Of a stretch of 64,000 nucleotides of DNA, positions 43,320 to 64,000 are shown piece by piece. Below the pieces are notes generated by a model. That model was given only the letters and a program-made list of their open reading frames with translations. It did no database searches and was not told where the DNA came from. A program made the translations under genes and the position numbers. Origin of the DNA: Candidatus Aenigmatarchaeota archaeon. Lineage in GTDB: Archaea > Aenigmatarchaeota > Aenigmatarchaeia > Aenigmatarchaeales > Aenigmatarchaeaceae. The stretch spans positions 9,116-73,115 of the forward strand of contig JAFGAZ010000004.1 of assembly GCA_016933455.1 (NCBI GenBank), written 5' to 3'. Within the stretch, counting starts at the first letter, position 1; the number at the start of each line of letters is the position of its first letter.

Positions 43320-44096
43320 TCAGGCGAACTCTTTTTTCCTTTTGAAAGCCATCTTTACCTTGTCCCAGAAACTGTAACTGTAGTCGTGTCCCGCTATCTT
43401 GGCAGCCAGCTTAAAGAAGGCCTGTTGCGACGGTGATTTCTTTTTTGATGAGGCAACTAGCTCCTTTTTGTTAAAGCTTGCCAAAACCTCTTCGTCTTCT
43501 GGAACATACCCTATTATCGGCATTTCTAAAAACTGCTGTATCTCTTCCATGGTCAATTCGTACTTTTTGTTTCTGACCCTGTTGACAATTACACCTAGTA
43601 ATGTCGGACGTATCTGGAACTTTTCTATCACATGCTTGCACTTTTCTATGTCAACCAAAGACGGTATGAAAGGGTTTGCGACAAAAAGCGTCTCGTCGCT
43701 TGCCTGCAGAGCTATCATGGCCTCCTTGCCAAGGCCCGGAGCAGAGTCTAAAATAACTATGTCGTAATCCGCAAACACCTGCTTTAATTTTTCCTTAATG
43801 CCGCTGACATCAATGTTAACTATGTCGTCTAGTCTTAGGGATGCTGGCACAACGTTAAGGCCTGATTTGTGCTTGTATATGGCGTCTTCAAGCTTAACCT
43901 CGTTTCTCAAAAAATTGTTTAGTGTTAGAGGGCACTTGTACATGTCAAAGTAAAGACCTATGTGTGACGTTGTTATGTTAAAGTCTATAACAGCCACTTT
44001 CTTGTTATATTTCTGGAGTGCCACGCCCAGATTGGCGGCTATCGTGGTCTTTCCTACCCCTCCTTTGCCAGAGCACACGTTTATTATTCTTACCAT
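43320..44096 (-). CDS. MinD/ParA-family ATPase, paralogue B.
   Basis: CSGKGGVGKTT Walker A, collinear with paralogue A. Its start overlaps the stop of the upstream 783-aa gene (44096-44099). Confidence 0.85.
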   Translation of the reverse strand: MVRIINVCSGKGGVGKTTIAANLGVALQKYNKKVAVIDFNITTSHIGLYFDMYKCPLTLNNFLRNEVKLEDAIYKHKSGLNVVPASLRLDDIVNIDVSGIKEKLKQVFADYDIVILDSAPGLGKEAMIALQASDETLFVANPFIPSLVDIEKCKHVIEKFQIRPTLLGVIVNRVRNKKYELTMEEIQQFLEMPIIGYVPEDEEVLASFNKKELVASSKKKSPSQQAFFKLAAKIAGHDYSYSFWDKVKMAFKRKKEFA

Positions 44097-44098
44097 TA

Positions 44099-46450
44099 TT
44101 AATCACCTTTTTGCGTCAAATTTTTGGAAAATTTCAAAACATTGGGAAATTCCGTTATTATGAGCTTGTCATAGCTTCCTGTGTTTGGATGCATGGGCTG
44201 ACCGTCGGTGCTCATGTATTTCCTAACACCTATAAGGAAACTCCTTATCTCTCCCCTGTTGCTGAACTTTTTTCTTTTTTTTAGCAGTATTGCAAGCGAA
44301 AAGCAAACTGCCGCGAATATTCCCACGAATGCCAGTTCATAGTAGCTTATTTGCGGTAGTGTAAAGCCTGTTGCAAGACCTGTTGTGGGAACTGTTTCTT
44401 GCTCGCCAGTTTCAAAAACATTAAGGCCAAATACCAGCTCTTGTGTAATTTCATTGTTTTCAGATTTCAAAGTCACGCTTCTTATGCCGGTTTCCATGTA
44501 AACAGGGATCGAAATATCCAATGTTATATCCCTGCTTTCTCCTACTTTGAGACTTATCGTATCGGGTTGAAGAGTGTAATAGTCCTGTGAAATGCCCTCC
44601 AAGTAAAGCAGCATTTCGGTTAGGTCATCTTGTCCGTCGTTGACTATCGTAAAATTATAGCTGCTGCTTCCACCCCTTTCTATTCTGACAGTCTCTGGAA
44701 AGTCGATGAAAACTGATTTGCTCTTTACAACTGAAATTTTTGTTTCTCCATTGAAAGCGCTGTAGGGCTCCTTTCTTGCATCAACTGATACAACATATTC
44801 TGCCTCGTTTTTTGGAACGTCAAGCTCCACGGAAAACACGCCGTTGTCGTCGGACTTTACTGTTATGCTTTCCTGCGTGTTTTTTATGGCGACAAAAACT
44901 GTGGTGTTTCCGACAACATCTCCGTCCTCATCCTTTGTTATTCCCGACACCTTTATTGTTTCGTCCAGATTGTACTCTTTCTTGTCCGTGCTAAATACCG
45001 ATTTTAGACTCTTGACCTCGCCTATTACGAACGCTGAAAGACCTGAAGCTGTTATTCTAACATTGTTTCTTATCATGTCTATGTCGTATCCGATCTCTTC
45101 CCATTCGTCACTGCATGCTTGCTTTCCCATGCTCCAGTCCGAGCATCTAAACACCTTTAGCTCATCCTCGTCTATCACATTGCCTTCGTCATAGTCCATT
45201 TCCAATTCCAGTGTTGAATAGTCAAGACCTATCTCGTAGCCGTATAGGCCGGCGTTTCTTATGCCGGGTATTTCTGTTTCGTCGCCGTAAAAATAATTTA
45301 TAGGATCGTCAAATTCGCTGAGCGTCACGCTTGAGAGTTCAATTTGGGATTTAGGAAAGTCAATGACTATGTCGTAAACTCCTGGAGGCAAAAGTCCTCC
45401 GTATTTGCCGTATGCGTCTGTTGATACTGTCAGCTTGTTTATATCGTTCTGATTGAACTTTATCTTGGTGCTTATGGCTTTGTTGTTTTCATCAACCAAC
45501 TCGCCGTCAATGACTACAGCGTATTCTATCTGCTTGTTTGCAGAATAAGTTTTCGATTCGTGGCTCATGCTGGCTTCTAACTGATAGCTTCCAGGCGAAA
45601 GCGGCGGGGCCATGATGCTAATAACATAGTAATTCCCCTGCAAGGAAAAGCCCGTTACATCAGCAGAGGTTCCACCGATTTTTATTCCAATATCGTTCTG
45701 GTCTAGGCTTATCATGTTTCCCTTGTCCATAGCCAATACGGAGACTGTTATGTTGTCCTTGCTCTTAATCCACGTCTTTGATACTGAAGCTATCTCAAAT
45801 TCAATGCTGTTTCTTACGTCAGCAGAGCCATAGTCGGTTACTGATGCCCCCTCATAGAACATAGTGACACTAACATCGTAAACATCGCGTGTTCCTGGAG
45901 TGTCAAGCTTTAGTATCCACCCTCTTGTGATGTCGTATGCAGGAACAACCTTGAGATTTTTCAAAACACCGTCAAGCGTCACGTTGAACAAGACATCATG
46001 CGTTATTCTTGCACCATCTTTCTCTGCTACAAAGTCTATCTCTATTGTGTCGCCTATGTATGCTGGCACCGGTCTTATGTCGCCTATGTATCCTGACAAG
46101 CTAGAAACCGTAAAGCTGCTTGCTTGGCTTGTGATATTGCTGACATTGTTTTTGCAGTATACGGTCACATCATATGTTCCAATCCTGTCTAGATACGCCT
46201 CGCTTAAAGACAGCTGATAGTTTATGTTCCCTGAAAAATAAAGTATAGGCAGCAATATTTCTGGACCTTCTATTTGGGCATACACCTGTTCTATTGACAT
46301 GTTAGCATTGTCAGTGCACAAAAGTTCCATGTCAACGCTTGTTCCAATCCAAGGATTTTGCGGGTCTATCGAAAAGTCTTGTATGACTGGCATTGCAAAA
46401 GCCGCGTTAACGGAAAGCAAAAGTATGACTAAGGGCAGGAGTTTTTTCAT
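44099..46450 (-). CDS. Large surface protein, 783 aa: signal peptide, repetitive Ig-like beta domains, a TM anchor and a cytoplasmic tail of about 60 aa.
   Basis: MKKLLPLVILLLSVNAAFA signal, TM FVGIFAAVCFSLAILL followed by KKRKK, then a soluble tail immediately before the MinD gene. Confidence 0.7.
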   Translation of the reverse strand: MKKLLPLVILLLSVNAAFAMPVIQDFSIDPQNPWIGTSVDMELLCTDNANMSIEQVYAQIEGPEILLPILYFSGNINYQLSLSEAYLDRIGTYDVTVYCKNNVSNITSQASSFTVSSLSGYIGDIRPVPAYIGDTIEIDFVAEKDGARITHDVLFNVTLDGVLKNLKVVPAYDITRGWILKLDTPGTRDVYDVSVTMFYEGASVTDYGSADVRNSIEFEIASVSKTWIKSKDNITVSVLAMDKGNMISLDQNDIGIKIGGTSADVTGFSLQGNYYVISIMAPPLSPGSYQLEASMSHESKTYSANKQIEYAVVIDGELVDENNKAISTKIKFNQNDINKLTVSTDAYGKYGGLLPPGVYDIVIDFPKSQIELSSVTLSEFDDPINYFYGDETEIPGIRNAGLYGYEIGLDYSTLELEMDYDEGNVIDEDELKVFRCSDWSMGKQACSDEWEEIGYDIDMIRNNVRITASGLSAFVIGEVKSLKSVFSTDKKEYNLDETIKVSGITKDEDGDVVGNTTVFVAIKNTQESITVKSDDNGVFSVELDVPKNEAEYVVSVDARKEPYSAFNGETKISVVKSKSVFIDFPETVRIERGGSSSYNFTIVNDGQDDLTEMLLYLEGISQDYYTLQPDTISLKVGESRDITLDISIPVYMETGIRSVTLKSENNEITQELVFGLNVFETGEQETVPTTGLATGFTLPQISYYELAFVGIFAAVCFSLAILLKKRKKFSNRGEIRSFLIGVRKYMSTDGQPMHPNTGSYDKLIITEFPNVLKFSKNLTQKGD

Positions 46451-46665
46451 TTTCTTTCCCTCCTTGGAACCATGTATATATTGGACCTGCCCACTTTGTG
46501 CAGTTCGAGCTTGCCCTGGTTTTTTAGAGCTTCAAGATAACCTGCTGCAACATCCCTTCTCATGCCGAGCTTTTTGGCTATCTGCGATACTGACAGCAGC
46601 TCCTGTCCAAGAATGTCTAGAACCTTTTTCTCGAAATCCGCCCCTGTAAGCCCCTTTTCAGCCAA
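46447..46665 (-). CDS. Small winged-helix transcriptional regulator of about 72 aa. A TTG start is proposed. The tracked ORF 46447..46809 reads an N-terminal extension through an AT-rich spacer.
   Basis: wHTH LLSVSQIAKKLGMRRDVAAGYLEALKNQGKLELHKVG. The tracked N-terminus is low-complexity Y/I/S-rich and has no other Met. Its stop overlaps the 783-aa gene start. Confidence 0.5.
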   Translation of the reverse strand: MAEKGLTGADFEKKVLDILGQELLSVSQIAKKLGMRRDVAAGYLEALKNQGKLELHKVGRSNIYMVPRRERK

Positions 46666-46771
46666 ATAAACACTCTTCCATATTGCAACTATATAGATAT
46701 CATATAAATTTGATATAAATACTTTTCTGTATACATATGAATACAATATAGACGCAATATAGCACAAAGAA
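46666..46771. promoter_or_regulatory. Repeat-rich AT spacer inside the operon, a candidate internal promoter or operator for the wHTH gene.
   Basis: Direct repeats TCATATAAAT/TGATATAAAT (46712-46741) and CAATATAG twice (46754-46774). Confidence 0.35.
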
Positions 46772-49926: not shown

Positions 49927-52900
49927 TTACTTTAACTTTTTCTCTATTTTACTCATCTTCTTCTCAAGGCTATCCTTCATTCTTGCATAGGTGCCTTCTG
50001 TTATCAGACCTTCGCTCTTTTCCTTGTCTAGGACTTTGATCATTCTGAATATCTTTTCCTTCTCTTTTTGAAGCATCTCAACTTCCGCATCGCTTTTTCC
50101 TGGTCTGTGGAAAGCTCCCTTGATTTTGGATAGCCTGTTTTTTAGAATACTTTTTAGTTTCTTCTTTCTTTGCAAATATACCAGAATTATGACGATTATG
50201 ATTATTGCTATTAAGCCTATGAAAATGAAAAGAAGCGACGAGAAAGTGTCTGGCTCCTCCATTTCCAGCATGTCCAAAAGGTCCCTTGCTCTTGATATGA
50301 GGCTAAGGGCGCTGCCTGTTTTTTCCATGCCAGCGTCTATGTCGTTGTTTTTCAGGTCCTTTTTGGCGTTTTCTATGTAGGATTCTATGGTGTCAACTAG
50401 TGTTTGGACATCCGATACGTCCTTTCCTTCCCTTTCAGCTACCCTGAGGTCTATTTTCAGCTCAATTAGGCTTTCCTCAACCATTGCTATCTCGGCTTCA
50501 AGAACTTCCTTTATCGAGCTAAAGATGTTTACCTCTATTGACTGCTGGTCGCTAACAACTCCTGATGTCACAAGCAGGCTGGCATCATAGTTTCCTGTGT
50601 TTGTGTTCTCGGGTATGTTGAACTCTACTAGGAATACTGAAGAATTGTCAGTTACAAGTTCATCGTATTTTGAAGGCGTTATGTTAAACCAGTTGGTCGG
50701 AACACCGAGAACAAAAAGGCTCACGTTATTTAGATCAACCCTTCCGCTGTTCTTTACAATCACTTTTTCTATTTTTGTAAAGCCTCTTGCAAGAGTTATG
50801 TTGTTGTTATAGCCTGTTATGAGTATGCTTGCATCGGTTTCCTGTGTTGGCTTTATAGCGTAATACGTCGGGGTATTTCCAACAGATGTCTGTGGTGGTG
50901 CGGGTGTTGTTCCTGCAGATGAGACGTAAAAAGTCACGTTAGCGTCTATGGGTGATTGGTATAGGCTGTATGTAACCTTGGCGTTTATGGTGTACGTTCC
51001 AAGAGGCTGGTCAGTGTATATGTATGCGTTTCTGGTAAAGCTGCTGTTGCTGTATGCTGGAGTTAAGACAGCCTCTGAAAATGAGTAGTAGCCATTTCCA
51101 GATTGGTCTGTTATGTTGTATATCACATAAACGTCTTGCGTCACCTCTCCTTTGTTTTCCAGAATTATCTCAAAGTCAAGATAGTCGCCCTGCGGGACCT
51201 CGTTTTCGAACAGGTTGAGCCTAACGTCGTAGGGACCTCCCTGTGAAACTCTGAATGCTTGTATCTTCATTGAGCTAAATGAGCCGTCAGAAACATTGAG
51301 TACAGCCATGTACATGCCTGTTGGTGTGCCAACACCCATTGCGTGCGAGTATGTATAGTATCCTGTTGCCTCTTTTGTAAGCGATGAAAGTGTTGTTGAA
51401 AAATAAAGGTTGTCTGCAGAATCGTAGACTGTCAGATTTATCTCGTCTGGGTCTATCGGTCTTCCCTCCCCGTTGTACACCAGCATGCCGAATTTCATTA
51501 TGTTGTTTGGATACCAAACAACAGATGTTTCAACATCAGCGAAAAGCCCTGTCACTGATATTGTCCTTGACTCTACATCGAAAGTGCTGTTTTTCTGTAG
51601 GTTCAGTGTCTGGTTTAGCACGTCTTCATAGAAGCTATAGTTGGTAAATAGCGTGTAGGTTCCTATGGGAGCGTCTGACTGTAAGGAGAACGTTGGCATG
51701 GGTGATATTGTTCCGTCAGAGTTGGACACGTTCTGCGAATAGTGTGTCAGGTTGCCATAAGGGTCTGTTATGTTAAAGGTTATGTTCGAATTGTTTATAC
51801 CCGTGCTGTTGGCATCCCTTAGCATAAAGTACAAGGAACCCGTGTCTCCCTGGTAGTACGTTCCTGCCAAAGGAGTTGACGTCACAAGCATTCTTTGGTA
51901 TATTGAAAAGTTAGTGCTGTAGTTGCCAAGGTTTCCTATGTTGTCCGAGCTGTATATGGAAACATTGTATATGCCTCTTTGGTTTGTGTTGCCAAGAGCT
52001 TCTGTGTAGTTTAGATACCATTGTGAAAAGTTTCCGCTTTCATTGAGTAGTGTCATGCTAGTGCTGCTTGAAAAGCTGTCGGGTTTTGTCACAGTTACAT
52101 TAAGCCACTTTATGCCGCTGTTTGACCTGTCTGTTAGGTTCACAAAGAACTCGACTGATTCGTTCTGCTCAGTGAAATTCGGGGTTATCAAAGTCTCCAT
52201 AAGCGGGGGAACATTGGGCAAAAGGTTTACTTGGAATGTTGCGTTGTCTGGTTGGGCGTCTGCCTGAGTTGCGTTAACCAAAAAAGTCGAGTTGAATATG
52301 GACGGCGATATGCCTGTTACGTTGTAAAGTATTGCCAACGTGTGATTGGAACTTCCGTTGACAGAGAATTCAGTTTCGTTTGCTGTTGTATAGTTGCCGT
52401 TTTCAGGGGAGACTGTGAAATTTATCACATCGTTTCCAATGTTCATTATCTCTATCTGGCACGCGGTTCCCTCTTCAGGCTCTTCTGCCTTTTCGCAGAA
52501 TGTGGGGTATAGTGTCCATGTTCTGTTTGAAAGCACGGTTATGTTTACCAATAAAGTGTCATAGTCTCCGTTGCCTGCAGAAACGTTCAAAGTTGCGTTG
52601 TAAACACCTGCTGGATAGCTAAGAGGTACTGTTGCATTCAATGAAACAGAGCTGTTATCATCTACATCAATGCTTGAGATGCTAGATGGCGTGAATTCTA
52701 AAGTAAAGTTATCGCACACGTCTCCGGAGATGCAACTAAATGCAATATTTTGCAAGGCGTCGTTTCCAATTGAAAGAACCGTAAAGTTGCTAATGTATGA
52801 TTCCTCTGCATCTGTTGCGCTTCCTGAAATGGTAATTTCACTTACGTTTATTTTGGGATTTGAAGCTACTGTTACGTTTAGGGTTGTTGTGTTAGAACCA

Positions 52901-55782
52901 GTGGAATCGTCGGGATTTGTCCAGTTGGAGCTTACATTTATGTAATAATTTCCTGTGGATGTTGCGTTGGGAACGGTTATGTTGAAAGCCTTTGTGCAAA
53001 CCTGGTCCTTTGTTATGTTGTCGCAATTTTCAATGCTAATGTTTGATGACCAGCCAATGGGCAACTGGATGCTCATGTTGGTGTCCCTGGCACTTCCGTT
53101 GCCTATGTTTTGCAAAGTGCTTTCAAAAAGGAAAGTCTGACTGTCAGCTTTTGATATATTGTAGACAGTTTGATTGTTGGGAGTTAGCAACATACTTAGA
53201 TTTGTTTCTGTTGGTATTGTGACAAACAAAAATATGGTGTCGTAACCGTTGTTTTCCGATGAGACGTTGACTGTTCCGTTATAAGTCCCAACAGCATAGC
53301 CTAACGGTACAGTTATGTTAACAGAAACAGACCCGTTTTCGTTGACATTAATTTGCGATATGTTCGCTGGTTCGAATTCTGCTGTAAAGTCATTGCAAAC
53401 CGTTCCTTCATAGCAATCGAAACTTATGTTCTGCAAGGCATCATTTCCAATCGAAAGAACCGTAAAGTTGCCGATGTAGTTTTCATAACCGTCTGCAACT
53501 TCCGTTGTTATGTTGTTTTCGAATATTCCTGTTCTTGGATTCGAAACTACTGTTACATTTATTGTTGTTAGATTGTTTCCAAGGGAGCTGTCAGGGTTGG
53601 TCCATTCGGAGCTTACGTTTATGTAGTAGTTTCCAGGAGACGTTGCGTTCGGTACTGTTATGTTGAAAGCCTTTGTGCAGTTCCCGTTCTTGTATATGTC
53701 ACCGCAATCCTGAACTAAAAAGTCCGCATCCCATCCTGCCAGAAGCTGAAGACTTATGTTCGATGAATATGCGGTTCCGTTGCCTATGTTTGTGGCATTT
53801 GCTGTTATCGAGAAGCTGTCGTTTTCATAAAGACTCACGTTGCTAACGCTTGTTTCCGAAGGGTAACTTGTTATGCTCATGTTTGTACCTGCTGTTTCCG
53901 AAGTGAAAGTTTCGCTGTCGTTTCCAAAGTTGCCGTATTTCGTGGCATTACAAATAAGAACATAGTCCCCTATTACAGGGGAGGTAAAATTGATAGAATA
54001 TGTCCCGTTTCCATGGTCTGTTTTGTTCAAAACTTCCGTGGAATTGTAGGAACAGTTTATTTGCGCGCCTGTTATATAGCTGCTAAGATTGTAGTTTCTT
54101 ACATCTATGCTGGCAAACACAAATGCGTTTTCTATTGGATTTTGATTTTCTATTGCCAATGTCACGTTAAAAATGTCTGTGACATTGAAGTTGTACAAAG
54201 TATAATTTAGGAACTCGCTCGAACTTGTGTATGTTGTTATATTTATTTGCCATTCTGTTACATTGGCATTGTTTGGTATGTCAATTGTGTTTGCAAATAG
54301 TTTATCATCGGCAGAACCATCGTCATGGGACCCGTCGTCATAAAGAATTATGGTGACATCATCGCCTGTGTCAGTAGTTCCCATGTCTATTGTTGCGTTC
54401 ATGTACTCTGTTAGGTTGTACGGGTCACCGCTTCCAAGGTCTCCTATTATTAGTGCTGTCTCGTTCCTGTTGAAAATAGTTGCGTTGCTTGAAGGCGCGT
54501 TGTTTACATACCAGAGTTCTGGAAGCGACTGTGTGATAACTATGGGGTTTGCGTACCTGTCCTTTATGTTGAGGAACTCTGTAACAGCGTCACCTCCTCC
54601 AGCTCCTGCAAAGTATATCAAAGACACTTGCTCTATGTACGAGTCCGCTGAAATTGTGGTATTGCTAAGCTCTATGCCAACCCTGCCGTTCAACGAGCTG
54701 CTTTCGTTGGCAAAGTAGTTTGAAGTTCCCGTCTGGTTCATGTTTATTATACCAACAAGCTCTCCGCCAATACCTGAAGCCCAAGACCATGAATAGGGGT
54801 TTGTTGTATCCCCATCCTGGTTGTTTATCAAACCCGAGTTGAATGTTCGGTTTACATCAAGCGCTAGCGCGCCTGATATGGTCGAGTTTCTCTGCACAGA
54901 ATATCCTGCGCTGTTGGTCACTCTTTGAACAACTTTTATGAAAGTACCTCTTGACTGGGGACCTGCGTTGTTGTAAACATAATATTTTTTGGTCAAGTTT
55001 GCTTCCCCTGTCTGTTGTGAAGGGCTATTGAAAATAACTTCGTTTCCGTTTTGCACAACCGTTACACGAACATCACCTTCAACAAAGGATGCACTCCCTA
55101 TCAAATTGAAAGACGTGTTGTGCGTCCCATTAAAGTATTCAATGTATTCTGTAGTTTTTTCAGAAATGTCAGAACTAAATATTACGTTGTCGTACTTGTC
55201 TTGGGATCTGTATATACCTGACGTGTTTTCAGCCCTGTTGGTATCCATGAAAAATCTCATAAAGCTGTTATTAACAGAAAACATCTGCCCATCCCAGCCG
55301 TAGGAAAGGTTAGTAGGATACGAAGCCTCGTCCTTTGGACCGTTGGAAGATGTGTCGTAATAAATATAGAATGTCCTGTTCGTGTCGGCACTGCTTGTCC
55401 CGTTCATTAGGAAGACCAAAGTCCCAACAGCGTTGCTGGAAGCGTCAAAATCTTCTGCTTGATCAAACTGGCATGGGACCTCATACAATATGCTTCCAGC
55501 CTGTGAGTATTCTATGACTCTTGTTGAGTTTATGTCAAACGTGCCTGAAGGAATTAGGTCGGTAAAGTTAACATCATACTCCACAGGCCAGTTCTCTCTT
55601 TCATACTGAACAGAATTTATGTCAAGCCTTGCCCTGTAATTCCAGGAAACATTCCACCATTCCGCATCCGTTGGCTGCCCAAAGCCTATGAACATGCCTG
55701 TTATGCCAGAACCTAGAATGTAAAAAGCAGCTGCAGATGTAACGAATATAGCTAAAACTACAAAAATAGCTGCTTTTTCCAT
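49927..55782 (-). CDS. Giant cell-surface protein, 1951 aa. It has an N-terminal signal/TM, a highly N-X-S/T-rich beta-rich ectodomain with a tandemly duplicated ~235-aa module, a coiled-coil stalk, a TM anchor and a ~75-aa cytoplasmic tail with a SHOCT-like motif.
   Basis: Near-identical internal repeats (CTKAFNITVPNATS[PT]GNYYINVSS[EN]WTNPD, FTVLSIGNDALQNI.F.C..G.VC.[DN]FT). C-terminal TM FIFIGLIAIIIIVIILVYL followed by QRKKK. The tail contains EGLITEGTYARMKDSLEKK. Confidence 0.8.
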   Translation of the reverse strand: MEKAAIFVVLAIFVTSAAAFYILGSGITGMFIGFGQPTDAEWWNVSWNYRARLDINSVQYERENWPVEYDVNFTDLIPSGTFDINSTRVIEYSQAGSILYEVPCQFDQAEDFDASSNAVGTLVFLMNGTSSADTNRTFYIYYDTSSNGPKDEASYPTNLSYGWDGQMFSVNNSFMRFFMDTNRAENTSGIYRSQDKYDNVIFSSDISEKTTEYIEYFNGTHNTSFNLIGSASFVEGDVRVTVVQNGNEVIFNSPSQQTGEANLTKKYYVYNNAGPQSRGTFIKVVQRVTNSAGYSVQRNSTISGALALDVNRTFNSGLINNQDGDTTNPYSWSWASGIGGELVGIINMNQTGTSNYFANESSSLNGRVGIELSNTTISADSYIEQVSLIYFAGAGGGDAVTEFLNIKDRYANPIVITQSLPELWYVNNAPSSNATIFNRNETALIIGDLGSGDPYNLTEYMNATIDMGTTDTGDDVTIILYDDGSHDDGSADDKLFANTIDIPNNANVTEWQINITTYTSSSEFLNYTLYNFNVTDIFNVTLAIENQNPIENAFVFASIDVRNYNLSSYITGAQINCSYNSTEVLNKTDHGNGTYSINFTSPVIGDYVLICNATKYGNFGNDSETFTSETAGTNMSITSYPSETSVSNVSLYENDSFSITANATNIGNGTAYSSNISLQLLAGWDADFLVQDCGDIYKNGNCTKAFNITVPNATSPGNYYINVSSEWTNPDSSLGNNLTTINVTVVSNPRTGIFENNITTEVADGYENYIGNFTVLSIGNDALQNISFDCYEGTVCNDFTAEFEPANISQINVNENGSVSVNITVPLGYAVGTYNGTVNVSSENNGYDTIFLFVTIPTETNLSMLLTPNNQTVYNISKADSQTFLFESTLQNIGNGSARDTNMSIQLPIGWSSNISIENCDNITKDQVCTKAFNITVPNATSTGNYYINVSSNWTNPDDSTGSNTTTLNVTVASNPKINVSEITISGSATDAEESYISNFTVLSIGNDALQNIAFSCISGDVCDNFTLEFTPSSISSIDVDDNSSVSLNATVPLSYPAGVYNATLNVSAGNGDYDTLLVNITVLSNRTWTLYPTFCEKAEEPEEGTACQIEIMNIGNDVINFTVSPENGNYTTANETEFSVNGSSNHTLAILYNVTGISPSIFNSTFLVNATQADAQPDNATFQVNLLPNVPPLMETLITPNFTEQNESVEFFVNLTDRSNSGIKWLNVTVTKPDSFSSSTSMTLLNESGNFSQWYLNYTEALGNTNQRGIYNVSIYSSDNIGNLGNYSTNFSIYQRMLVTSTPLAGTYYQGDTGSLYFMLRDANSTGINNSNITFNITDPYGNLTHYSQNVSNSDGTISPMPTFSLQSDAPIGTYTLFTNYSFYEDVLNQTLNLQKNSTFDVESRTISVTGLFADVETSVVWYPNNIMKFGMLVYNGEGRPIDPDEINLTVYDSADNLYFSTTLSSLTKEATGYYTYSHAMGVGTPTGMYMAVLNVSDGSFSSMKIQAFRVSQGGPYDVRLNLFENEVPQGDYLDFEIILENKGEVTQDVYVIYNITDQSGNGYYSFSEAVLTPAYSNSSFTRNAYIYTDQPLGTYTINAKVTYSLYQSPIDANVTFYVSSAGTTPAPPQTSVGNTPTYYAIKPTQETDASILITGYNNNITLARGFTKIEKVIVKNSGRVDLNNVSLFVLGVPTNWFNITPSKYDELVTDNSSVFLVEFNIPENTNTGNYDASLLVTSGVVSDQQSIEVNIFSSIKEVLEAEIAMVEESLIELKIDLRVAEREGKDVSDVQTLVDTIESYIENAKKDLKNNDIDAGMEKTGSALSLISRARDLLDMLEMEEPDTFSSLLFIFIGLIAIIIIVIILVYLQRKKKLKSILKNRLSKIKGAFHRPGKSDAEVEMLQKEKEKIFRMIKVLDKEKSEGLITEGTYARMKDSLEKKMSKIEKKLK

Positions 55783-55823: not shown

Positions 55824-56306
55824 CTATTCTAAACCGAAAATGTCGAATTGCACGTTGCTTTTCATGTAAGAAGAAGCCATGTAGTATTCCCCTGCTGTTA
55901 TTGAGCTAAAGCCAAATAACATCATCGGATATGCTGCAATTCCAAGGCTTGCCAAACCCATGTCCAAGGCGCTGAAAATAAAGGATAGCCCGAAAACCAC
56001 CATGAACATGTTCCTTCCCGGTGTTTTCATTGACAGGAAAAGAAGACCAAAACAAGAAGTCATCAAAAGGCCGCTAAGATAAAAAAGAGTCTGGTTCATG
56101 CCGTTTGCGCATATCATTTCAGTGTAAGGCCCCTCCAGCATGGAATTCAAAAGAACTGCCTTTCCCTGCTCGCAACCCATAAGATAGCCTGCCCCAAGAT
56201 GTGTTATTTCGTGTATAGATATTAGTGCGAAAAACACTGTCACATTGAGCAATATTATACTTAATATTTTCCTTTTCATGGGCTCACGAGAAGTAGTTAA
56301 ATACAA
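55824..56306 (-). CDS. Small polytopic membrane protein with an HExxH motif, a putative intramembrane metalloprotease.
   Basis: IHEITHLGAGYLMGCE lies at the end of the first TM helix, with four to five TM helices overall and 160 aa total. Confidence 0.5.
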   Translation of the reverse strand: MYLTTSREPMKRKILSIILLNVTVFFALISIHEITHLGAGYLMGCEQGKAVLLNSMLEGPYTEMICANGMNQTLFYLSGLLMTSCFGLLFLSMKTPGRNMFMVVFGLSFIFSALDMGLASLGIAAYPMMLFGFSSITAGEYYMASSYMKSNVQFDIFGLE

Positions 56307-56332: not shown

Positions 56333-56629
56333 CTATATTTCAACCCTTTCAATGACTTTCTTGACAGCCTCTATTTTCCTAATAGCCCTTTTTATCTCAA
56401 AGTTTATGTTTTTTTCCAGCTTTTTGCGCTCTTTTTGCAGGCTCTTTTCCTTGCCTTTGTATCTGCTTTCTGAAAGAGCGCCCTCTGAGAACGCTTTTGT
56501 ATTTTCCTTTATCTTTGTATCAAGAAAAAGAAGCTCTTCCTGAGAAATCTTTATTCTAGAGCTTAGTGAGACTATCTCTTCCAAGCCGTTTTCTATGCTG
56601 TTTAGCTTTATTTTCTTTACAACAGACAT
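56333..56629 (-). CDS. Small helical protein, 98 aa, with a SHOCT-like motif.
   Basis: SEGALSESRYKGKEKSLQKERKKL segment. It is paralogous to the adjacent 106-aa ORF. Confidence 0.5.
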   Translation of the reverse strand: MSVVKKIKLNSIENGLEEIVSLSSRIKISQEELLFLDTKIKENTKAFSEGALSESRYKGKEKSLQKERKKLEKNINFEIKRAIRKIEAVKKVIERVEI

Positions 56630-56950
56630 CTATTTCTTCCCCTTTGCCTTCTTCTCTTTTTTCACAGCACTGCATTCCTGCTTCTCAACCTCGCTTTTTA
56701 TGTTGACTAGCATGTCCACATTGGTTTTCAGCAGCGTCTTTATGCTCTTTATTATGCTTACGCTTTTTCTTTTCAGGCTCTTTTCGTTTGCATTGAATTT
56801 GTTTTTTGAAAGCCTGCCGCGTTCAAATTCCTTGTTATTTTGGTATATCGAATTTAGCATGCCTTCTAGCTCGGTTTGAAGAATGCTTATTTCGAACGAA
56901 TTCTCGAAAATTTGTCTTGCTGTTTCCTCGATTCTTTTTTGGTTAATCAT
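56630..56950 (-). CDS. Small helical protein, 106 aa, with a SHOCT-like motif.
   Basis: ERGRLSKNKFNANEKSLKRK segment. Its stop abuts the next gene's start (56629/56630). Confidence 0.5.
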   Translation of the reverse strand: MINQKRIEETARQIFENSFEISILQTELEGMLNSIYQNNKEFERGRLSKNKFNANEKSLKRKSVSIIKSIKTLLKTNVDMLVNIKSEVEKQECSAVKKEKKAKGKK

Positions 56951-56954: not shown

Positions 56955-59165
56955 TCATACCTTTAATTCTTTAAGGTTATCTAGTATTTTTTTCTTTTGG
57001 TCCTCGTTTCCTTTCGTCTTTTTTGTTTTCTTTGGTTTCTTTTTTTCCTTTTTGGTTTTTTTATCTTCCTTTTTTGGCTTCTCTTCAGACTCTTTCTTCT
57101 GGGGTTTTTCTTCCTTTTCCAAAGGCTCTTCCTTTTTTGGCTCTGATACTCTTTCTTTTGCTGCTTGTGGGTGGAGCAAGACATCTATGTTTTTCCACTG
57201 CTCCTCTATCTTGGACCTTATTTCGTCAAGTTTTCTCTCGTTTAGGCGTTTCATTTCCTCGTACTCTGCCTTGTTCATCTTGTGCTCGATCATCTGCATT
57301 TCGAGCGAATCCATGAACATCTTTATGTCTTCCTTTTCCTTTCTTAGTTTTATTAGTTCTTCCGGCAGTTTCAAATCCGCTACTGGCAAAATTTTCTTTA
57401 TTTCTTCTATCTGCTTTTTGATTAGAATGTTTTCCTCTTTGAAATCGTCCAAGTCCTCTTTTGAAACATACTCTTTGAGCTTGACATTGAGGGTGTCTAT
57501 TGATGTAAGAACATTTCTCATGCTCTCGTCGAAATCCTCCTGCTTGGCCTTGATCATGACCAAGTCCTCAAGACCCTTGCTTAGGTCTATGAATATCTTT
57601 TCCGTCTTGGTTCCTATCCTTTGTATGTACTTTATGGCCTCGTTTATGTCCTTGATTTTCTTCTGAATATCCCCGTTTAGGCCTATTAAGTTTTCAATGC
57701 CCCCTATGCTTTTTAGCATGTCGTATATCTCATTGACCTTGTCAACGCTGCCTTCTGACTTTCTTTTCACCTTTTCTAGATCCAGCTTGTCCTTTTCTCT
57801 TTCTTCTTTTAGAAGGTTGAACTTCTTTGTCAGCTCTTTTGGCTTTATGTCAGACACTTCGTCCTCTAGCCTTTCCATGTTGGCAGAAGTTGTCTTGAAA
57901 TTGGCATCGGCCTGCATAACCATGGACCTTATCTCGCCTATGTTTTCAGAAATGTTTTGTATTGCCTCGTCAGTTGCTTTTTTAGACTCCTTGAAAGTGT
58001 CAATCATGACTTTTAGCTTCTCTATTTCTATTGATAGTTTGTTGTCGTTCGGTATTGCGCTCTCTTCTTCGCTGCTATCTTCCGTATCTTCTATAGGAAC
58101 GTCGGCTGCGCTGTCTCCAGCCATCTGGGCAGATAGTTTTTCTATGACTTCTGGTGTTACTTCCTCTATCTTGTCTATGTCAAGCTTCTCTTCAGGCTCT
58201 TCTTTTTTCTCGGGCGTTTCTGCTTTGTTTTCTTTCTTGTCATCTTTCTTTTCCTCGGGTTTTTCTTCCTTTGGCTTTTCTTCAGGTTCAGAATTTACTT
58301 TTTCTGCTGGAGCCTTAACCTCATTTGGTTGCTCCTCAATTTTTATATCTTCTTTTGGAGCATCCAAAACAGCAGCTTTTTGTTCAACTATCTTATTTTC
58401 TTTTGTTTCTTCCCTTTCATTCAAATTTTCCTGTTTAACAGCTTCTTTTGCCGCGCTATTAGTATCAGAATTATTCTTATCCTTTTTGCCAAACATTTTC
58501 TTGAAGAACCCTTTCTTTTCAACTTTTGGCTTTTCATCTTCCTTTATTTCATCTGTCATATCAATTACCTCGTCTTCTTTTTTTGTTTCATCTTGAACAT
58601 AAACCAATTCTTCCTCTTTAGGAACATCTTCTATTACTATCGTGGGGGTGTCGCCGTCAAGAGTTATTTTGACATCTTCTGTTTCGTTTCCTGTTTCTTT
58701 AGCAGTTTCTATGCCATCTTCAATAGTTTCATTTCTTTCTTCTCGGACTTTATTTTCCTTCTTTCCAAAGAGTCTGCTAAAGAACCCTTTCTTTTTCTTC
58801 TTTACCTTTATTTCAACTTCCTTTTCATCCTCTTCTAGAACCTTGTCAAGTTCCTTTAGCCTCTCCTCGTTGACATTTTTTATATTTTCATAATCTTCCT
58901 TATTAATCTCCCCGTTTCTGAACTGATCTTCCAATGAGTCTATGAACATCTGCACGTCCTTTCTTTCGCTTTCCCTCTTTCTTTTTTCAATACTGTCTTC
59001 TCTTTTATCCGTTATGTTCAACAATTCGTGACACCTTTTTCTTTTTTCCGCATAATCCTTTTCCGATATGTCTGCCATCCTGTATAGGTCCTCGAGCCCA
59101 ATTAGCATGTCCCTGGCTTCCTTTACGTTTGCCGGGGGCCTGTTGAAGTTGACTAGACCTATCAT
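56955..59165 (-). CDS. Cytoplasmic lysine/glutamate-rich coiled-coil protein, 736 aa, with SHOCT-like motifs at both ends and an acidic low-complexity core.
   Basis: N-terminal LEDLYRMADISEKDYAEKRKRCHELL and MFIDSLEDQFRNGEINKEDYENIKNVNEERLKEL. C-terminal MFMDSLEMQMIEHKMNKAEYEEMKRLNERKLDEI. No TM helix. Poly-lysine C-terminal tail. Confidence 0.7.
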   Translation of the reverse strand: MIGLVNFNRPPANVKEARDMLIGLEDLYRMADISEKDYAEKRKRCHELLNITDKREDSIEKRKRESERKDVQMFIDSLEDQFRNGEINKEDYENIKNVNEERLKELDKVLEEDEKEVEIKVKKKKKGFFSRLFGKKENKVREERNETIEDGIETAKETGNETEDVKITLDGDTPTIVIEDVPKEEELVYVQDETKKEDEVIDMTDEIKEDEKPKVEKKGFFKKMFGKKDKNNSDTNSAAKEAVKQENLNEREETKENKIVEQKAAVLDAPKEDIKIEEQPNEVKAPAEKVNSEPEEKPKEEKPEEKKDDKKENKAETPEKKEEPEEKLDIDKIEEVTPEVIEKLSAQMAGDSAADVPIEDTEDSSEEESAIPNDNKLSIEIEKLKVMIDTFKESKKATDEAIQNISENIGEIRSMVMQADANFKTTSANMERLEDEVSDIKPKELTKKFNLLKEEREKDKLDLEKVKRKSEGSVDKVNEIYDMLKSIGGIENLIGLNGDIQKKIKDINEAIKYIQRIGTKTEKIFIDLSKGLEDLVMIKAKQEDFDESMRNVLTSIDTLNVKLKEYVSKEDLDDFKEENILIKKQIEEIKKILPVADLKLPEELIKLRKEKEDIKMFMDSLEMQMIEHKMNKAEYEEMKRLNERKLDEIRSKIEEQWKNIDVLLHPQAAKERVSEPKKEEPLEKEEKPQKKESEEKPKKEDKKTKKEKKKPKKTKKTKGNEDQKKKILDNLKELKV

Positions 59166-62100
59166 TTACTCATCCTCTCCAACCTTTTTTCTAGCGAGTC
59201 TAGATAGGTCTCTGCCATCTTGAAAGCTGCTGTCTTAACCTTGTCTCTGGCTATGTTCAGCTCTATTTCTATATCATAAGTATCGACTTTTTGTGCCTTT
59301 AATTTTTCTATTTTCTCTTCCAGAGCCTTGACTTTCTTGTCAAGCGTCATGTAGGTGTCTATTTCCTTGTCTGTCAAAGCGAAAGGCGAGTGCAAAAGCG
59401 GCCTGAAGTTCACGAACCACGGCCTTCCGTGGTTGAACTCTGGGTTCTGGAACAGACCAGTACCAATTGTCAGCCTTGTCACCTTTGACGCGTAGTCTGA
59501 GCCGTACTTGGACTTGACCCTTCCTATGTCTCCCTCGTACTTTGTTCTTAGCTGTATTTCGTTTGCGATGTTTGCTCTGATGGCTCCCTTAAAGTCCAAA
59601 AGCACCTGCGATATCATGAAGATACCAATGCCCCACTTTCTGAACTCTCTGGCAGCCCTTTCTATTGCAGTGTAACCCTTCTTACCGCCGTACTTTGGCA
59701 ATAGCCTGTGGACTTCGTCGTACACCAAGAGCAGCTTTATCTCCTTGGATTCGGTCGGTCTCATGTCGAATATTTCTTGTATGCTTCTTCTAACGAACTT
59801 GTCGTTCTCTGAAGCGCTAAGCCTGTTCATGACAAAGACAGTTATCTCTCCGGGCTTCATGTACTTCTTTATGTTTATCTCCATGTCCCCGTCTTCTACA
59901 AGTATCACATTGGTCTTGAACCTTGTTGCATCGCTGGGCTTGAGACCGAATTTCGGATACATGGCAAGCATTGGCTTGAGTGTGTTTGGCTTCATAAATC
60001 CTGTCCATTGTGCTGTGGGGTCGAATACGATTATCGGCACCTTTCTTTTTAGCAACTCTTCTGCTGTTACCATGGCTGATACGGTCTTACCCGATCCAGT
60101 ACCACCGGCGGCTATTGAGTGCATGAGCAGTTGCGGTATTGGTATGTACGACTTGATGTCGGTTTCGGCTATCCTACCAACCAGTAGCGAGTCTGCACCC
60201 TCTTTTGGTAGAGCCTTAAAGTCCAGAGGCGCTATGTACCTTGCTTTGGCAGTCTTTGATGCCTTGAATGCGGCGTACCATCTAAGGCCTACGAGCAGGC
60301 TTGGCACTCCGCCCAGAAGCACAACGTAAGTTATCCAGTTTAGGAATATCGATTTGAGAAGTATGAGTATCCACGGCAGTTTTGTTACCTCAAAGTCGTC
60401 TGATGAGGATGCGTACTTGTTGCCGTCCCAGTAGCTAACATTCGTGTCAATCAAATACATGCCTTCTGGTGTGTTTTCAGGTATTTGGACTGTTCTTTTG
60501 AAGGTTAGCACATTCTCGACTGCCAAAGTCTCTGTGTTTGTGGTTATTATTTCGTCTGGACCGTTTAGAGGTCTGACAGTGTACGTTACCGTTATGTCGT
60601 TTATCTCTGCTGTTTCTCCCATGTTGAGCAGGGTCGTTTCAAACGTCAGGTTGGTTCCGGGATTAATAGATTCTGAAAGAACCTTTACCTGAACGTCCAT
60701 AAGAGGCTCTAAAACTTCCCTTACAGTTATGGTTACAGGCGTTGTGTGCTCAACATCGCCTGCTGTCACAACTATGTTTCCTGTGTAGATGCCAGGAACT
60801 GCTGTGAGAGGCGCTTGTGCCCTTATTGATACGGATTCTGTTGTTTTGCCGTTGAGTCTAAATGACGGCCTTTGTATGGTCAACAAATTGAACACGGGGC
60901 CTTCCACTACTATTGAAACAGTGACATCCTCGTCAAGGTTGTTTATTATGTCTGTAGAGAAAGTTTTTTGCTCTCCTGGCGTTAGCGTTGTCTCTATTAT
61001 TGTTGACCTAACTTCCAGAGGCACGATGTTTACATCAACTCCTGTTTGGGTTGTTGTGGATGTGCCTGAACCAGATCCTCCACCGCCTCCTCCCGCTCCT
61101 CCGCCAGTGATAGGGTTGGTTGGCGTTGGCGGCACATACAGGCAGTCTGTTGGGCAGTTGCTTGTTGTTTCTCCATAGTTGGACTCGCATTCGCCATCTC
61201 CGCATATGAATTCTGCTAGCACATACACGCCTGTTATGTCTGATACGTTTATTCTTGCTTCAAGGCTTGTCAGGTTGACACTGTCATCACCATTGTCCAT
61301 GTCCGTGTTGCTAAGTCTGCTAAACAGCGAGTTGTCAGTTGAACTTACCTTGTTGGTCCAGTTGCCCGTGTACTTGTATATACCCAAGTGGTTTGGATCT
61401 ATTATGGGGAAGCCGCAAGCGCTATTTAGGCACTCTGAAAAGTCTATTATTATCGTTGCGTTCTCAAAAGGCAGCGTGTTGTTTACGTAAAAGCCCTTGA
61501 GCACTGTGCTAGAAGTTCTGACAGTTGGTATCTTACCGAACGAAACAGAGTTGTTGTAGTTTATGGATATGTTTGAGTTGTACAATTTGATGCTGTTATC
61601 GAAAGCGTCACCGCTAGTGCTTATTACAATGTCATAAACTTTCGAGTCTATTGTCTCGTTGTAATATCCTGTTGTCAAGTTAGAGCTAAAGTTGGACCTA
61701 ATATCATTTGTGTCGTAGTCATAGAAAGTAAAGTTGACATTTATTACTGGATCGAGTATGTTCTCTATGTCTTTGGTGTAACCACTGAACAAAACTATTG
61801 GATATATCTCGAAATTATCTGATGATGCGTTGCAGTTGTTTGACAAATCACATGATGTTATGTTGAATGTGTAGTTGCCAAGCTGCGAAGTGTTGCTAAA
61901 GTTAAAGCCGTAGGAATAGACGTCTGGTGTTTGAGATTTCAAAATCAGTGTTATATTCTGTGTAGTGTTGTCAGGCAGCTTCATGCTCGCCGTTATATTT
62001 TTTAGACCTCCGGACTCTGTAATATTTGCCCCTATACAAACTGAAGAGTTTACAGGAACCCTAATTGGTATTTCAACGTCTATCAAAGGAGCAGCCTCGT

Positions 62101-64000
62101 CCTCATAGACTATGGAATTGTATTCTATATCTGACCTGACGTTGTAATATGTTCCGTTGTGGAAACCAGTGATGTTTAGGTTGTAAACTCTTCCTGTGCT
62201 AAGGTTAGGCGCTATGAAATCTATTTCCCAGGCATTATGAGGAACGCTATAGTCTTGGTTGTTAATTGTAGCGTTTGTTGATATTGTGTCGTTGAATATA
62301 ACAACTTCGAATGTAACGTTTTCTGTTATCATGCTAGAGTTCTGTGTTACATTGACCCATGTCTCTATGTTGTCTCCGACATTTACGTCAATTTCTGGAA
62401 CGCTTTGTGTCGGGGAAACTATGTTAACATTGTATGGTGTTACAAACAGTGTGACTTCTGTTGAAACTTCCTTTACACTTGCGTTCTCCCTCATTGCGCC
62501 TGTTATGTTAGTTGTTATGAAACCTGTGTAGTTGGCATCGTATGTTATGTTCGGCGATGAGTAGTTTATGGTTATGAAGCTGGAATTGCCGTACTGGGAA
62601 GTTATATTGTAGCTGTCAAGCGTTATGTAAGGAGATATGGTTCCGTTTACTGTTACGTTCAAGCTCATGTTGGCGTTTCCGGTGTTTATGATTTCTATCT
62701 GACCAAACTGTCCCTGCGTCCCGTCCTTGACCCTTTGCACTATTTCCGTCGGGTCGTGTATCCAAGATACGTTTGCCGGAACTAGTATGTAAACCGGCAT
62801 CTCCCTGTAGAACGATGGCTGCGTGTAATTATCCGACCAGCTTATGTTCATGGTGCCGTTGTATGTTCCTGTCTGATAGTTCGAAGGAACTGTTAGCGTT
62901 ATGTTGAATGTCGACGAGTTTCCTATCTCAAGCAATGACACGTTCTGTGGTTCGTAATCAATAGTAAAGTTCTCGCATACTTCGCCTGATGTACATTCAA
63001 TGCTTATGTTGGTTGCGTTGACGTTTCCAATTGATGTCAAAGTCAAGTTTGTTGTCTTAGGCGTTCCTGCCCAGGCGACCTCTGATATCTGGCTCTTTGA
63101 AACTCCTATGAACGGATTTGCCGTTACGTTTACAGGAAGGCTGTAGACGCTGGTGTTATTAGAGTTGTTTAGGTTGACCCACTGGCTTGTGAAATTCACA
63201 TAATATGTCCCTGGAACAGTTGAGCTGTCAACACTAATTGTTGTTATGTTGTATTCTGCCTCGTTCTTGAGCAGTGTTCCGAACTGGAAGTATGTGGGGG
63301 TTGCGCTTGTGTTGTTGGAATAGTTCAAAGATACATTCACTTCGTGTGCTCTGGAACCTCCAAAGTTGCTTGCAGAAAAGTTTATAGCAAAGCTCTGTCC
63401 GCTTACCTGCGTTATGTTGGTCGCGTTTATTGTGGTAACATTTGGCACTATTGTTATCTCGGTCGTGTCAGAGCTTGTGACGTTAACAGGGTCTGTGCAC
63501 GTTGTCAGCGTTTGTGTATCGTTTGCGCATATTATTATCTGGTGCAGTCCTGCCACCGGATATTCGTATGTGATATTGAAGCTGTCGTTGTGTGTATTTA
63601 TCATGGGCAGTATGAAGCTAGAGCTGTTTGGTGGAGTTATGTTTACCCATGCATGGCTAACAGCATAGTTGTCTGTTATGTTGGCTTCTATTGTGACGTT
63701 CTCATACCCTTGCTCGAATGCTAGCGGGTCAATAACAACATCATCTATGACCGGAGGTATGTCTGTTACGTTGAGTGTGAAAGTCACATTCTGGCTTGCC
63801 GGGTCTGCTGTTACGTTTCTTATCAGAAGCGTTACATTATACAGTCCGTCTGTCACAAAGTCTGGAACAGTGTATGATATGTTTATGTTTCTGCTAACCT
63901 GCTTCTCAAGGTCGAAGCTGTACCAGTTAACTCCCTCTATTCTAACATAGCCGTTGTCTCCTGATTTTGTCACTTCGAACGGTATCTTTACGTTTCCTAT
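59162..64000 (-). CDS. Fusion protein of at least 1612 aa whose N-terminus runs off the window. More than 1100 aa of extracellular adhesin-like, sequon-rich domains with a Gly/Thr linker are joined through one TM helix to a C-terminal cytoplasmic HerA/VirB4-like (DUF87, FtsK-HerA superfamily) ATPase.
   Basis: Walker A AAGGTGSGKT, followed by IIVFDPTAQW (the HerA 'FDPHGEY' position) and Walker B LLLVYDEVH (HerA 'EEAH'). TM WILILLKSIFLNWITYVVLLGG. The ectodomain shares the CxxGxVCxNFT module with the 1951-aa protein. The frame stays open to the window edge, and the tracked start is a GTG. Confidence 0.8.
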   Translation of the reverse strand: MGNVKIPFEVTKSGDNGYVRIEGVNWYSFDLEKQVSRNINISYTVPDFVTDGLYNVTLLIRNVTADPASQNVTFTLNVTDIPPVIDDVVIDPLAFEQGYENVTIEANITDNYAVSHAWVNITPPNSSSFILPMINTHNDSFNITYEYPVAGLHQIIICANDTQTLTTCTDPVNVTSSDTTEITIVPNVTTINATNITQVSGQSFAINFSASNFGGSRAHEVNVSLNYSNNTSATPTYFQFGTLLKNEAEYNITTISVDSSTVPGTYYVNFTSQWVNLNNSNNTSVYSLPVNVTANPFIGVSKSQISEVAWAGTPKTTNLTLTSIGNVNATNISIECTSGEVCENFTIDYEPQNVSLLEIGNSSTFNITLTVPSNYQTGTYNGTMNISWSDNYTQPSFYREMPVYILVPANVSWIHDPTEIVQRVKDGTQGQFGQIEIINTGNANMSLNVTVNGTISPYITLDSYNITSQYGNSSFITINYSSPNITYDANYTGFITTNITGAMRENASVKEVSTEVTLFVTPYNVNIVSPTQSVPEIDVNVGDNIETWVNVTQNSSMITENVTFEVVIFNDTISTNATINNQDYSVPHNAWEIDFIAPNLSTGRVYNLNITGFHNGTYYNVRSDIEYNSIVYEDEAAPLIDVEIPIRVPVNSSVCIGANITESGGLKNITASMKLPDNTTQNITLILKSQTPDVYSYGFNFSNTSQLGNYTFNITSCDLSNNCNASSDNFEIYPIVLFSGYTKDIENILDPVINVNFTFYDYDTNDIRSNFSSNLTTGYYNETIDSKVYDIVISTSGDAFDNSIKLYNSNISINYNNSVSFGKIPTVRTSSTVLKGFYVNNTLPFENATIIIDFSECLNSACGFPIIDPNHLGIYKYTGNWTNKVSSTDNSLFSRLSNTDMDNGDDSVNLTSLEARINVSDITGVYVLAEFICGDGECESNYGETTSNCPTDCLYVPPTPTNPITGGGAGGGGGGSGSGTSTTTQTGVDVNIVPLEVRSTIIETTLTPGEQKTFSTDIINNLDEDVTVSIVVEGPVFNLLTIQRPSFRLNGKTTESVSIRAQAPLTAVPGIYTGNIVVTAGDVEHTTPVTITVREVLEPLMDVQVKVLSESINPGTNLTFETTLLNMGETAEINDITVTYTVRPLNGPDEIITTNTETLAVENVLTFKRTVQIPENTPEGMYLIDTNVSYWDGNKYASSSDDFEVTKLPWILILLKSIFLNWITYVVLLGGVPSLLVGLRWYAAFKASKTAKARYIAPLDFKALPKEGADSLLVGRIAETDIKSYIPIPQLLMHSIAAGGTGSGKTVSAMVTAEELLKRKVPIIVFDPTAQWTGFMKPNTLKPMLAMYPKFGLKPSDATRFKTNVILVEDGDMEINIKKYMKPGEITVFVMNRLSASENDKFVRRSIQEIFDMRPTESKEIKLLLVYDEVHRLLPKYGGKKGYTAIERAAREFRKWGIGIFMISQVLLDFKGAIRANIANEIQLRTKYEGDIGRVKSKYGSDYASKVTRLTIGTGLFQNPEFNHGRPWFVNFRPLLHSPFALTDKEIDTYMTLDKKVKALEEKIEKLKAQKVDTYDIEIELNIARDKVKTAAFKMAETYLDSLEKRLERMSK

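Follow-up and report, generated by a model that had tools for sequence, protein, structure and literature searches.

DPANN archaea need physical contact with a host, a contact that is poorly understood in molecular terms. The stretch of DNA analysed here, 64,000 nucleotides of contig JAFGAZ010000004.1 from a Candidatus Aenigmatarchaeota archaeon (the window), raises this question through the last gene it holds, a minus-strand open reading frame (ORF) in which a P-loop ATPase is fused to a very large extracellular region. A reading of the letters alone, hereafter the sequence-only reading, had treated this architecture as unusual and had suggested a contact-dependent translocation device. What is this protein, and is it likely to move anything? 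We find that the architecture is genuine and had already been described. The ORF very probably encodes an Aenigmatarchaeota member of the SPEARE family, with the anatomy described for these proteins and, as we propose, with an adhesin-plus-ring-ATPase mode of action. In the very small DPANN genomes few items are as conserved or as expensive as this family, which reaches 7,665 amino acids (aa) in the set found here, and the only lead that we regard as worth pursuing is a DPANN-wide three-gene module to which the fusion gene belongs. The parts of the fusion gene are as follows, with residues numbered from the first codon within the window.

59162..64000, minus strand: C-terminal part of a giant SPEARE-family gene (frame open to base 64000; alignments with L008, P0148 and P0149)
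61205..64000, minus strand: distal ectodomain (aa 1-932), sequon-rich, with Ig-like/NEW3 repeats (Pfam, sequon counts)
61142..61204, minus strand: Cys-rich knot CGDGECESNYGETTSNCPTDC (sequence)
61043..61105, minus strand: Gly/Ser/Thr low-complexity linker GGGAGGGGGGSGSGTSTTTQT (aa 966-986; sequence)
60374..61042, minus strand: membrane-proximal beta-rich module (aa 987-1209), about two Ig-like domains (sub-threshold Ig-like matches)
60284..60373, minus strand: single transmembrane (TM) helix, N-terminus outside and C-terminus inside (hydrophobicity, Lys/Arg stretch, sequons)
59165..60283, minus strand: cytoplasmic HerA/VirB4-type P-loop ATPase (aa 1240-1612; motifs, Pfam, profile, model)
60083-60112, minus strand: Walker A AAGGTGSGKT (aa 1297-1306; sequence)
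59699-59734, minus strand: Walker B LLLVYDEVHRLL (aa 1423-1434; sequence, aligning with HerA 'VIEEAHVFL')
59624-59662, minus strand: ERAAREFRKWG, candidate arginine finger (aligning with HerA 'ARIAREGRKFG')
59168..59371, minus strand: C-terminal three-helix/coiled-coil extension (aa 1544-1611; model helices 305-330, 336-350 and 354-372)

Translation of the minus strand over 59162-64000 gives 1,612 sense codons and a single stop at 59162-59164, so that the fragment is the C-terminal part of a giant gene whose 5' part lies outside the window. As the frame is without a stop as far as base 64000, the protein runs on beyond the window edge, as the sequence-only reading had supposed, and longer relatives agree. 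The closest of these, in a related locus (L008), is 78.7% identical across all 1,612 aa and belongs to an ORF of at least 2,349 aa that is still open at its own 5' end, and the last ~1,620 residues of two proteins of 4,179 aa (P0148) and 4,309 aa (P0149) align with the whole fragment. A frameshift or stop between ectodomain and ATPase would have made two genes of one; instead the frame is continuous and the fusion is conserved in hundreds of assemblies.

The family to which we assign the ORF was described by Hamm et al. (2019; PMC6642349) as the 'SPEARE' proteins of Nanohaloarchaeota, which are up to 8,553 aa long, mainly extracytoplasmic, and carry a TM helix near the C-terminus followed by a conserved cytoplasmic part that was read as a type III restriction enzyme. 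These authors pointed to similar sequences from Woese-, Aenigm- and Micrarchaeota and from Altiarchaeales (one Aenigmarchaeota homolog is listed in their Table S3), gave PF10633, a TM helix, a P-loop, DUF87 and the template 4d2i for family members in Table S2, and found the ecto- and cytoplasmic parts in separate size fractions by mass spectrometry. Reva et al. (2023; PMC10266531) re-annotated the giants as having a signal peptide, domains of Ig-like and beta-propeller type, a TM helix, a 'VirB4/TraG-like ATPase' and, at the end, a coiled coil, saw neither nuclease nor protease in them, and proposed 'straws' resembling a type IV secretion system (T4SS). The literature maximum for the family is 9,409 aa; it goes unmentioned in the ARMAN/Mia14 paper and in that of 2014 on archaeal 'dark matter'. 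The ATPase domain of the window protein is 39% identical over 290 aa (E=2e-82) to the SPEARE sequence from Ca. Nanohaloarchaeum antarcticus (Fig. S18 in the supplementary information of Hamm et al.), and the novelty that the sequence-only reading had implied for the architecture is thus lost to these two papers.

Within the FtsK-HerA superfamily, the C-terminal domain falls in the HerA/VirB4 branch, without being canonical as either HerA or VirB4. Pfam matches DUF87, the HerA central domain, over aa 1274-1412 at 31.7 bits (cut-off 23.2) and HerA_C at 26.2 bits (cut-off 22), with ResIII and DEAD falling under their cut-offs, and NCBIfam gives local, far sub-threshold matches only, to CedD, HerA, TraB and TraC. 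A 47-sequence profile searched against the PDB matched Sulfolobus HerA (4d2i, E=1.9e-13), whose 'IFD..GEY', 'IEEAH' and 'AREGRKFG' align with the motifs of the window protein; in this alignment VFDPTAQWTGF at aa 1325-1335 is the counterpart of 'IFDYHGEY' in HerA. The Walker A lysine, the Walker B Asp-Glu pair and the two arginines of ERxxREFRKWG are invariant across the 47 sequences, and from its motifs the P-loop ATPase is predicted to be catalytically intact. The AlphaFold2 model of aa 1240-1612 has a predicted local distance difference test score (pLDDT) of 92.6 and a predicted template modelling score (pTM) of 0.90, and Foldseek with this model placed HerA hexamers at the top (2.9e-12), followed by FtsK, TrwB and TcpA. 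The superfamily named by the sequence-only reading is therefore borne out by Pfam, profile and fold, and its ATPase motifs lie in the translation where it had put them. The linker from the TM helix to the P-loop is ~55 residues long and without a HAS barrel, and the helical extension at the C-terminus is conserved in homologs.

The fusion is genuine, conserved and widespread in DPANN archaea. With the ATPase domain as query, an exhaustive HMMER search recovered 354 cluster representatives (E<1e-30), whose description here rests on the best 150 listed; among these the domain is usually at or near the C-terminus of proteins of 356-7,665 aa, nearly all of them from DPANN archaea, and the identity of the matches listed is 43-78% across the whole domain. 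Searching with the whole fragment returned full-length homologs of 2,100-2,800 aa in metagenome-assembled genomes of Candidatus Aenigmatarchaeota, and a scan of GTDB species genomes gave at least 558 loci with the ATPase domain, the best 80 of which were used for all gene-order counts below. The sequence-only reading had asked whether the same fusion occurs in other archaea; it recurs in hundreds of genomes of several DPANN phyla, well beyond what chance would give. Within the best 80 loci, 78 are labelled Aenigmat-, Micr-, Nanohal-, Woese-, Parv- or Altiarchaeota, Nanoarchaeota/Nanoarchaeia, Haiyanarchaeum, or archaeon. The other two were binned outside DPANN, on contigs of 3.5-3.9 kb (L036, Heimdallarchaeota, 67% identity; L077, Halanaerobiaceae, 56%), and are most likely cases of mis-binning.

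Complete short forms of the protein also occur, made up of a signal peptide, an ectodomain of ~110-220 aa, a TM helix and the ATPase, and an N-terminal hydrophobic segment is present in the complete homologs P0010 and P0013 and in 75 of 116 representatives that start with Met. In a further DPANN contig (L003, 1-14734) a 3,904-aa fusion is directly followed by a 552-aa paralog of the short form, with signal peptide, small ectodomain, TM helix and ATPase; the helical partner described below comes next. This arrangement suggests that mixed rings are possible.

On the other side of the membrane, the fragment has 1,209 aa of ectodomain before the TM helix, with 79 N-x-S/T sequons, where 1,000 shuffles that keep the composition give 28.6 +/- 4.6 and at most 43, whereas the 373-aa cytoplasmic part has none, the pattern expected of an N-glycosylated exterior and a cytoplasmic C-terminus. 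The sole hydrophobic segment of the fragment is aa 1210-1239, and the Lys/Arg-rich RWYAAFKASKTAKAR directly after it agrees with the positive-inside rule. These results support the single TM helix before the ATPase and the huge sequon-rich ectodomain (>1100 aa) of the sequence-only reading. The poly-Gly/Thr linker that it had noted at about 61080-61140 is also present, but its coordinates were slightly off and it lies at 61043-61105. NEW3/NPCBM_assoc is matched in two stretches of the ectodomain (54 bits, cut-off 24.4), the best being aa 311-389 at 62834-63070.

Ectodomain length and content differ widely between homologs, and it is the distal ectodomain that varies within the family. In the membrane-proximal module the Pfam matches are sub-threshold (Glyco_hydro_123_N_2 at aa 1043-1079 and an RbmA-like fibronectin type III domain at aa 1144-1193); two N-terminally truncated members (P0055 and P0062) start within this module, and short family members look to keep part of it. 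Judged by these comparisons, the conserved core of the family is the ATPase with the membrane-proximal module, and the distal ectodomain is its fast-evolving part. Of 132 long family members, 45 have the motif CG[DN]GxCE...C..DC of the Cys-rich knot, at 281-399 aa upstream of Walker A. In the examples listed, among them the 7,665-aa P0209, Walker A is preceded at ~300-380 aa by a comparable Gly/Ser/Thr/Ala linker, and at least one run of Gly/Ser/Thr type is present somewhere in the protein in 59 of the 132. The linker is probably a hinge or a processing site, and may be the point at which the ecto- and cytoplasmic parts come apart into the different sizes that Hamm et al. found by mass spectrometry.

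Conservation does not stop at the fusion gene. Comparison with the 80 loci indicates a conserved unit that takes in, beyond the ATPase, the membrane-proximal module as well as a helical partner in the cytoplasm and another giant, and T4SS genes are outside this unit, which bears on the published 'secretion straw' idea. The neighbouring genes in question are these.

56955..59165, minus strand: partner protein, 736 aa, cytoplasmic, highly charged, all-helical (start overlaps the ATPase gene stop by 4 nt)
56333..56950, minus strand: two small charged helical ORFs of 106 aa and 98 aa sharing a SHOCT-like motif (homologs in 7/80 and 4/80 loci; weak evidence)
55824..56306, minus strand: 160-aa protein with 3-4 TM segments and HEITH (HExxH) (no Pfam or PADLOC family)
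49927..55782, minus strand: type-I membrane giant, 1,951 aa (signal peptide, NEW3 and MG2 ectodomain, 112 sequons, TM aa 1850-1868, short cytoplasmic tail with a SHOCT-like motif)
43320..46450, minus strand: 783-aa CarboxypepD_reg type-I membrane protein and MinD/ParA ATPase (43320-44096) (same neighbours in L001 and L007)
39068-39916, minus strand: second MinD/ParA ATPase paralog (inside the surface-protein cluster)

The partner protein has no TM segment and no Pfam family even at E<=1, and its AlphaFold2 model consists of long helices only. A homolog of its core (aa 371-670) is encoded downstream on the same strand in 75 of the 80 loci, against no matches with 20 shuffled controls, and among the 75 loci with 1.5 kb or more of sequence downstream it lies at most 2.5 kb away in 70; the partner is also immediately downstream in six further loci (L001-L004, L006 and L007). 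The contig encoding the partner protein carries just the last 96 codons of the fusion gene. As far as we found, neither Hamm et al. 2019 nor Reva et al. 2023 mentions the partner. The 1,951-aa giant has a downstream same-strand match in 50 of the 80 loci, and in 46 of these the match, lying 1.2-4.1 kb beyond the end of the ATPase gene, begins among the giant's first ~42 residues. Homologs of the giant occur in Aenigmat-, Micr- and Altiarchaeota, and the order fusion, partner, giant is repeated in L001 and L007. What is new here is this DPANN-wide gene order, from the fusion to the helical partner to the ~1,950-aa NEW3/MG2 giant, together with the Aenigmatarchaeota example.

A motif, G-x-[IL]-[ST]-x-x-x-[YF]-x-x-[ML]-[KR], recurs within the cluster on the minus strand, at 58806-59165 in the partner, at 56333-56950 in the two small ORFs and at 49930-50229, and again in the cytoplasmic tails of the 1,950-aa proteins (P0016-P0027). 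Its carriers could share it as a docking motif. A homolog of the 160-aa HExxH protein, possibly a membrane metalloprotease, stands between partner and giant in 15 of the 80 loci, and a MinD homolog is found downstream, after the partner gene, in 14. Elsewhere in the surface-protein cluster, a 120-aa ORF (46447-46809, minus strand) has sub-threshold winged-helix matches (SoFic-like C-terminal domain, HTH_29) and is possibly a local regulator. The whole gene cluster is chromosomal, adjoining the genes for ribosomal proteins L1 and L10 and for alanyl-tRNA synthetase. Pfam on the protein and 25 neighbouring ORFs showed no T4SS, NurA, nuclease or Ced genes in the cluster, and the window has no second protein with a Walker A of HerA/VirB4 type.

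How might such a protein act? Starting from its topology, its intact ATPase of a ring-forming superfamily, the conserved core beside a variable ectodomain and the conserved gene order, we propose that the ectodomain would bind the surface of the host cell and that the ATPase may assemble into a ring through a trans-acting arginine, as its relatives do. The ring would lie against the inner face of the membrane, in the position that the HAS barrel takes in HerA, and would bundle several adhesin arms, and ATP hydrolysis could either set a polymer in motion, be it DNA, RNA or protein, or remodel the contact site. The fusion protein would act together with the helical partner and the ~1,950-aa NEW3/MG2 giant. 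A bolder form of this proposal, in which the fusion, partner and NEW3/MG2 giant are one ancestral DPANN-wide host-contact machine whose ring ATPase, tethered to adhesin arms, moves a host- or symbiont-derived polymer across the symbiont membrane, is one that we put forward tentatively and would not ourselves bet on; if true, it would amount to a secretion or uptake apparatus separate from both the T4SS and Ced.

Several observations weigh against this account of the ORF. At least 737 N-terminal residues lie beyond the window, and the signal peptide and distal domains are supplied from homologs. By Pfam there is no laminin-G domain in the 1,209 available residues of the ectodomain, and Hamm et al. 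state that every SPEARE ectodomain has one. The ring, and likewise any pore or substrate, is a proposal. Six single TM helices alone cannot form a conduit for DNA or protein, and the module has no conserved polytopic channel protein (80 GTDB loci; Pfam on the neighbours). The fold of the partner is predicted with low confidence (pTM 0.27). The SHOCT identity of the recurring motif was rejected as sub-threshold (15.2 bits, cut-off 27), with what is left being a resemblance to SHOCT/GvpG at 15-19 bits. The 'contact-dependent translocation device' of the sequence-only reading is a reasonable suggestion, close to the proposal of Reva et al. 2023, with no channel-forming or T4SS partner encoded nearby.

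That proposal, made for the nanohaloarchaeal giants, is that the ATPase energises a T4SS-like apparatus in which the giant ectodomain is a 'straw' for the injection of effectors into the host (Reva et al. 2023). In its favour are the TraG/TrwB/AAA_10 families among the precomputed Pfam matches of homologs, the next gene in nanohaloarchaea, reported as a VirB4-family ATPase with PF03135 (PMC10266531), and the second, short-form paralog directly downstream in L003. However, sequence searches score HerA families above VirB4/TraG, the cluster is without PF03135, a second HerA/VirB4 ATPase or VirB3/6/8/D4-like genes, and the gene that is conserved downstream across DPANN encodes a coiled-coil protein and no ATPase. 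We also know of no conduit built as a string of Ig-like domains on one TM helix, and we consider the secretion apparatus possible but doubtful. Another possibility is that the protein imports DNA or RNA at the host contact, a HerA-type ring pulling host nucleic acid inward as CedB/CedD do in the crenarchaeal Ced system. DPANN archaea are not known to have nucleotide biosynthesis, and such import would feed a cell unable to make nucleotides. The best structural relatives (HerA, then FtsK, TrwB and TcpA) are double-stranded DNA translocases, the top local NCBIfam match is the DNA-translocating ATPase CedD at 27.7 bits, and DNA uptake via SPEARE was also suggested by Hamm et al. (PMC6642349). The CedD match, however, is confined to the P-loop region (aa 1285-1331) and stands at 27.7 bits against a cut-off of 600, and neither a CedA-like polytopic membrane partner nor a nuclease is encoded nearby, which leaves nucleic acid import unlikely. 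Both ideas are further weakened by six single TM helices being no obvious conduit.

Two other explanations fare much worse. The 'RE' of SPEARE stands for a type III restriction enzyme, and the weak Pfam match to ResIII (18.4 bits, E=0.0022) and the 'Restriction Enzyme Type III' domain reported by Hamm et al. for NAR1_1133 (PMC6642349) are in its favour. ResIII is nevertheless under its cut-off of 22.5 and, at aa 1299-1448, largely coincides over the P-loop region with the match to DUF87, which passes; Pfam and NCBIfam detected no nuclease or methylase domain; and the fold is that of HerA/VirB4 and not of a superfamily 2 helicase. The supplementary information of Hamm et al. itself gives DUF87 and the 4d2i HerA template for paralogs (PMC6642349), Reva et al. 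explicitly rejected the label (PMC10266531), and a restriction enzyme is by now effectively refuted and highly improbable. It could also be argued that the fusion arose as an artefact of assembly or a frameshift, or that the ATPase gene, of HerA type, belongs to anti-phage defence or a mobile element and lies beside an adhesin gene by chance, as chimeras do occur in metagenome assemblies and there are partial PADLOC matches to defence HerA models, the best at 43.3 bits over ~80 aa. But the frame is one and continuous, the fusion is found in hundreds of independent assemblies from several DPANN phyla, no SIR2, DUF4297 or NurA partner was seen (PADLOC on two neighbours; Pfam on neighbours), and the genes on the flanks have housekeeping roles. 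This explanation, to which we attach next to no probability, is refuted by how the fusion is conserved, and a packaging ATPase of a mobile element was rejected outright.

The SPEARE-family reading can finally be set against the known ATPase systems. Canonical HerA (Sulfolobus, PDB 4d2i) has a HAS barrel, whereas the window protein lacks it, is membrane-anchored and carries an ectodomain; its score with the NCBIfam HerA equivalog is 26.3 bits against a cut-off of 800, and Pfam found no NurA among the neighbours, unlike the HerA-NurA end-resection helicase. With the Ced system (CedB/CedD) it shares a sub-threshold CedD match, with no CedA-type polytopic partner conserved, and with HerA-based defence (SIR2-HerA, DUF4297-HerA) partial PADLOC matches, with no effector among the neighbours scanned. 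VirB4 has the N-terminal domain PF03135, which is absent from the window protein, as are other secretion components from its vicinity, and VirB4/TrwB/TcpA/VirD4, FtsK and EccC are anchored by 2-4 TM segments where the window protein has one TM helix and a huge extracellular domain. The nearest likeness is to the SPEARE proteins and the giants of Reva et al., even though those described as SPEARE are from Nanohaloarchaeota and this one is from Aenigmatarchaeota. The available 1,612 aa show no protease-like or toxin-like region, unlike SPEARE proteins, and the gene downstream encodes a coiled-coil protein here and in 75 of the 80 GTDB loci, whereas in the nanohaloarchaea of Reva et al. (PMC10266531) it encodes a second VirB4-family ATPase with PF03135. 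In the rest of its plan the window protein is built as those giants are, with an extracytoplasmic Ig-like/adhesion region, PF10633, a single TM helix near the C-terminus, a cytoplasmic P-loop domain and a terminal coiled coil.

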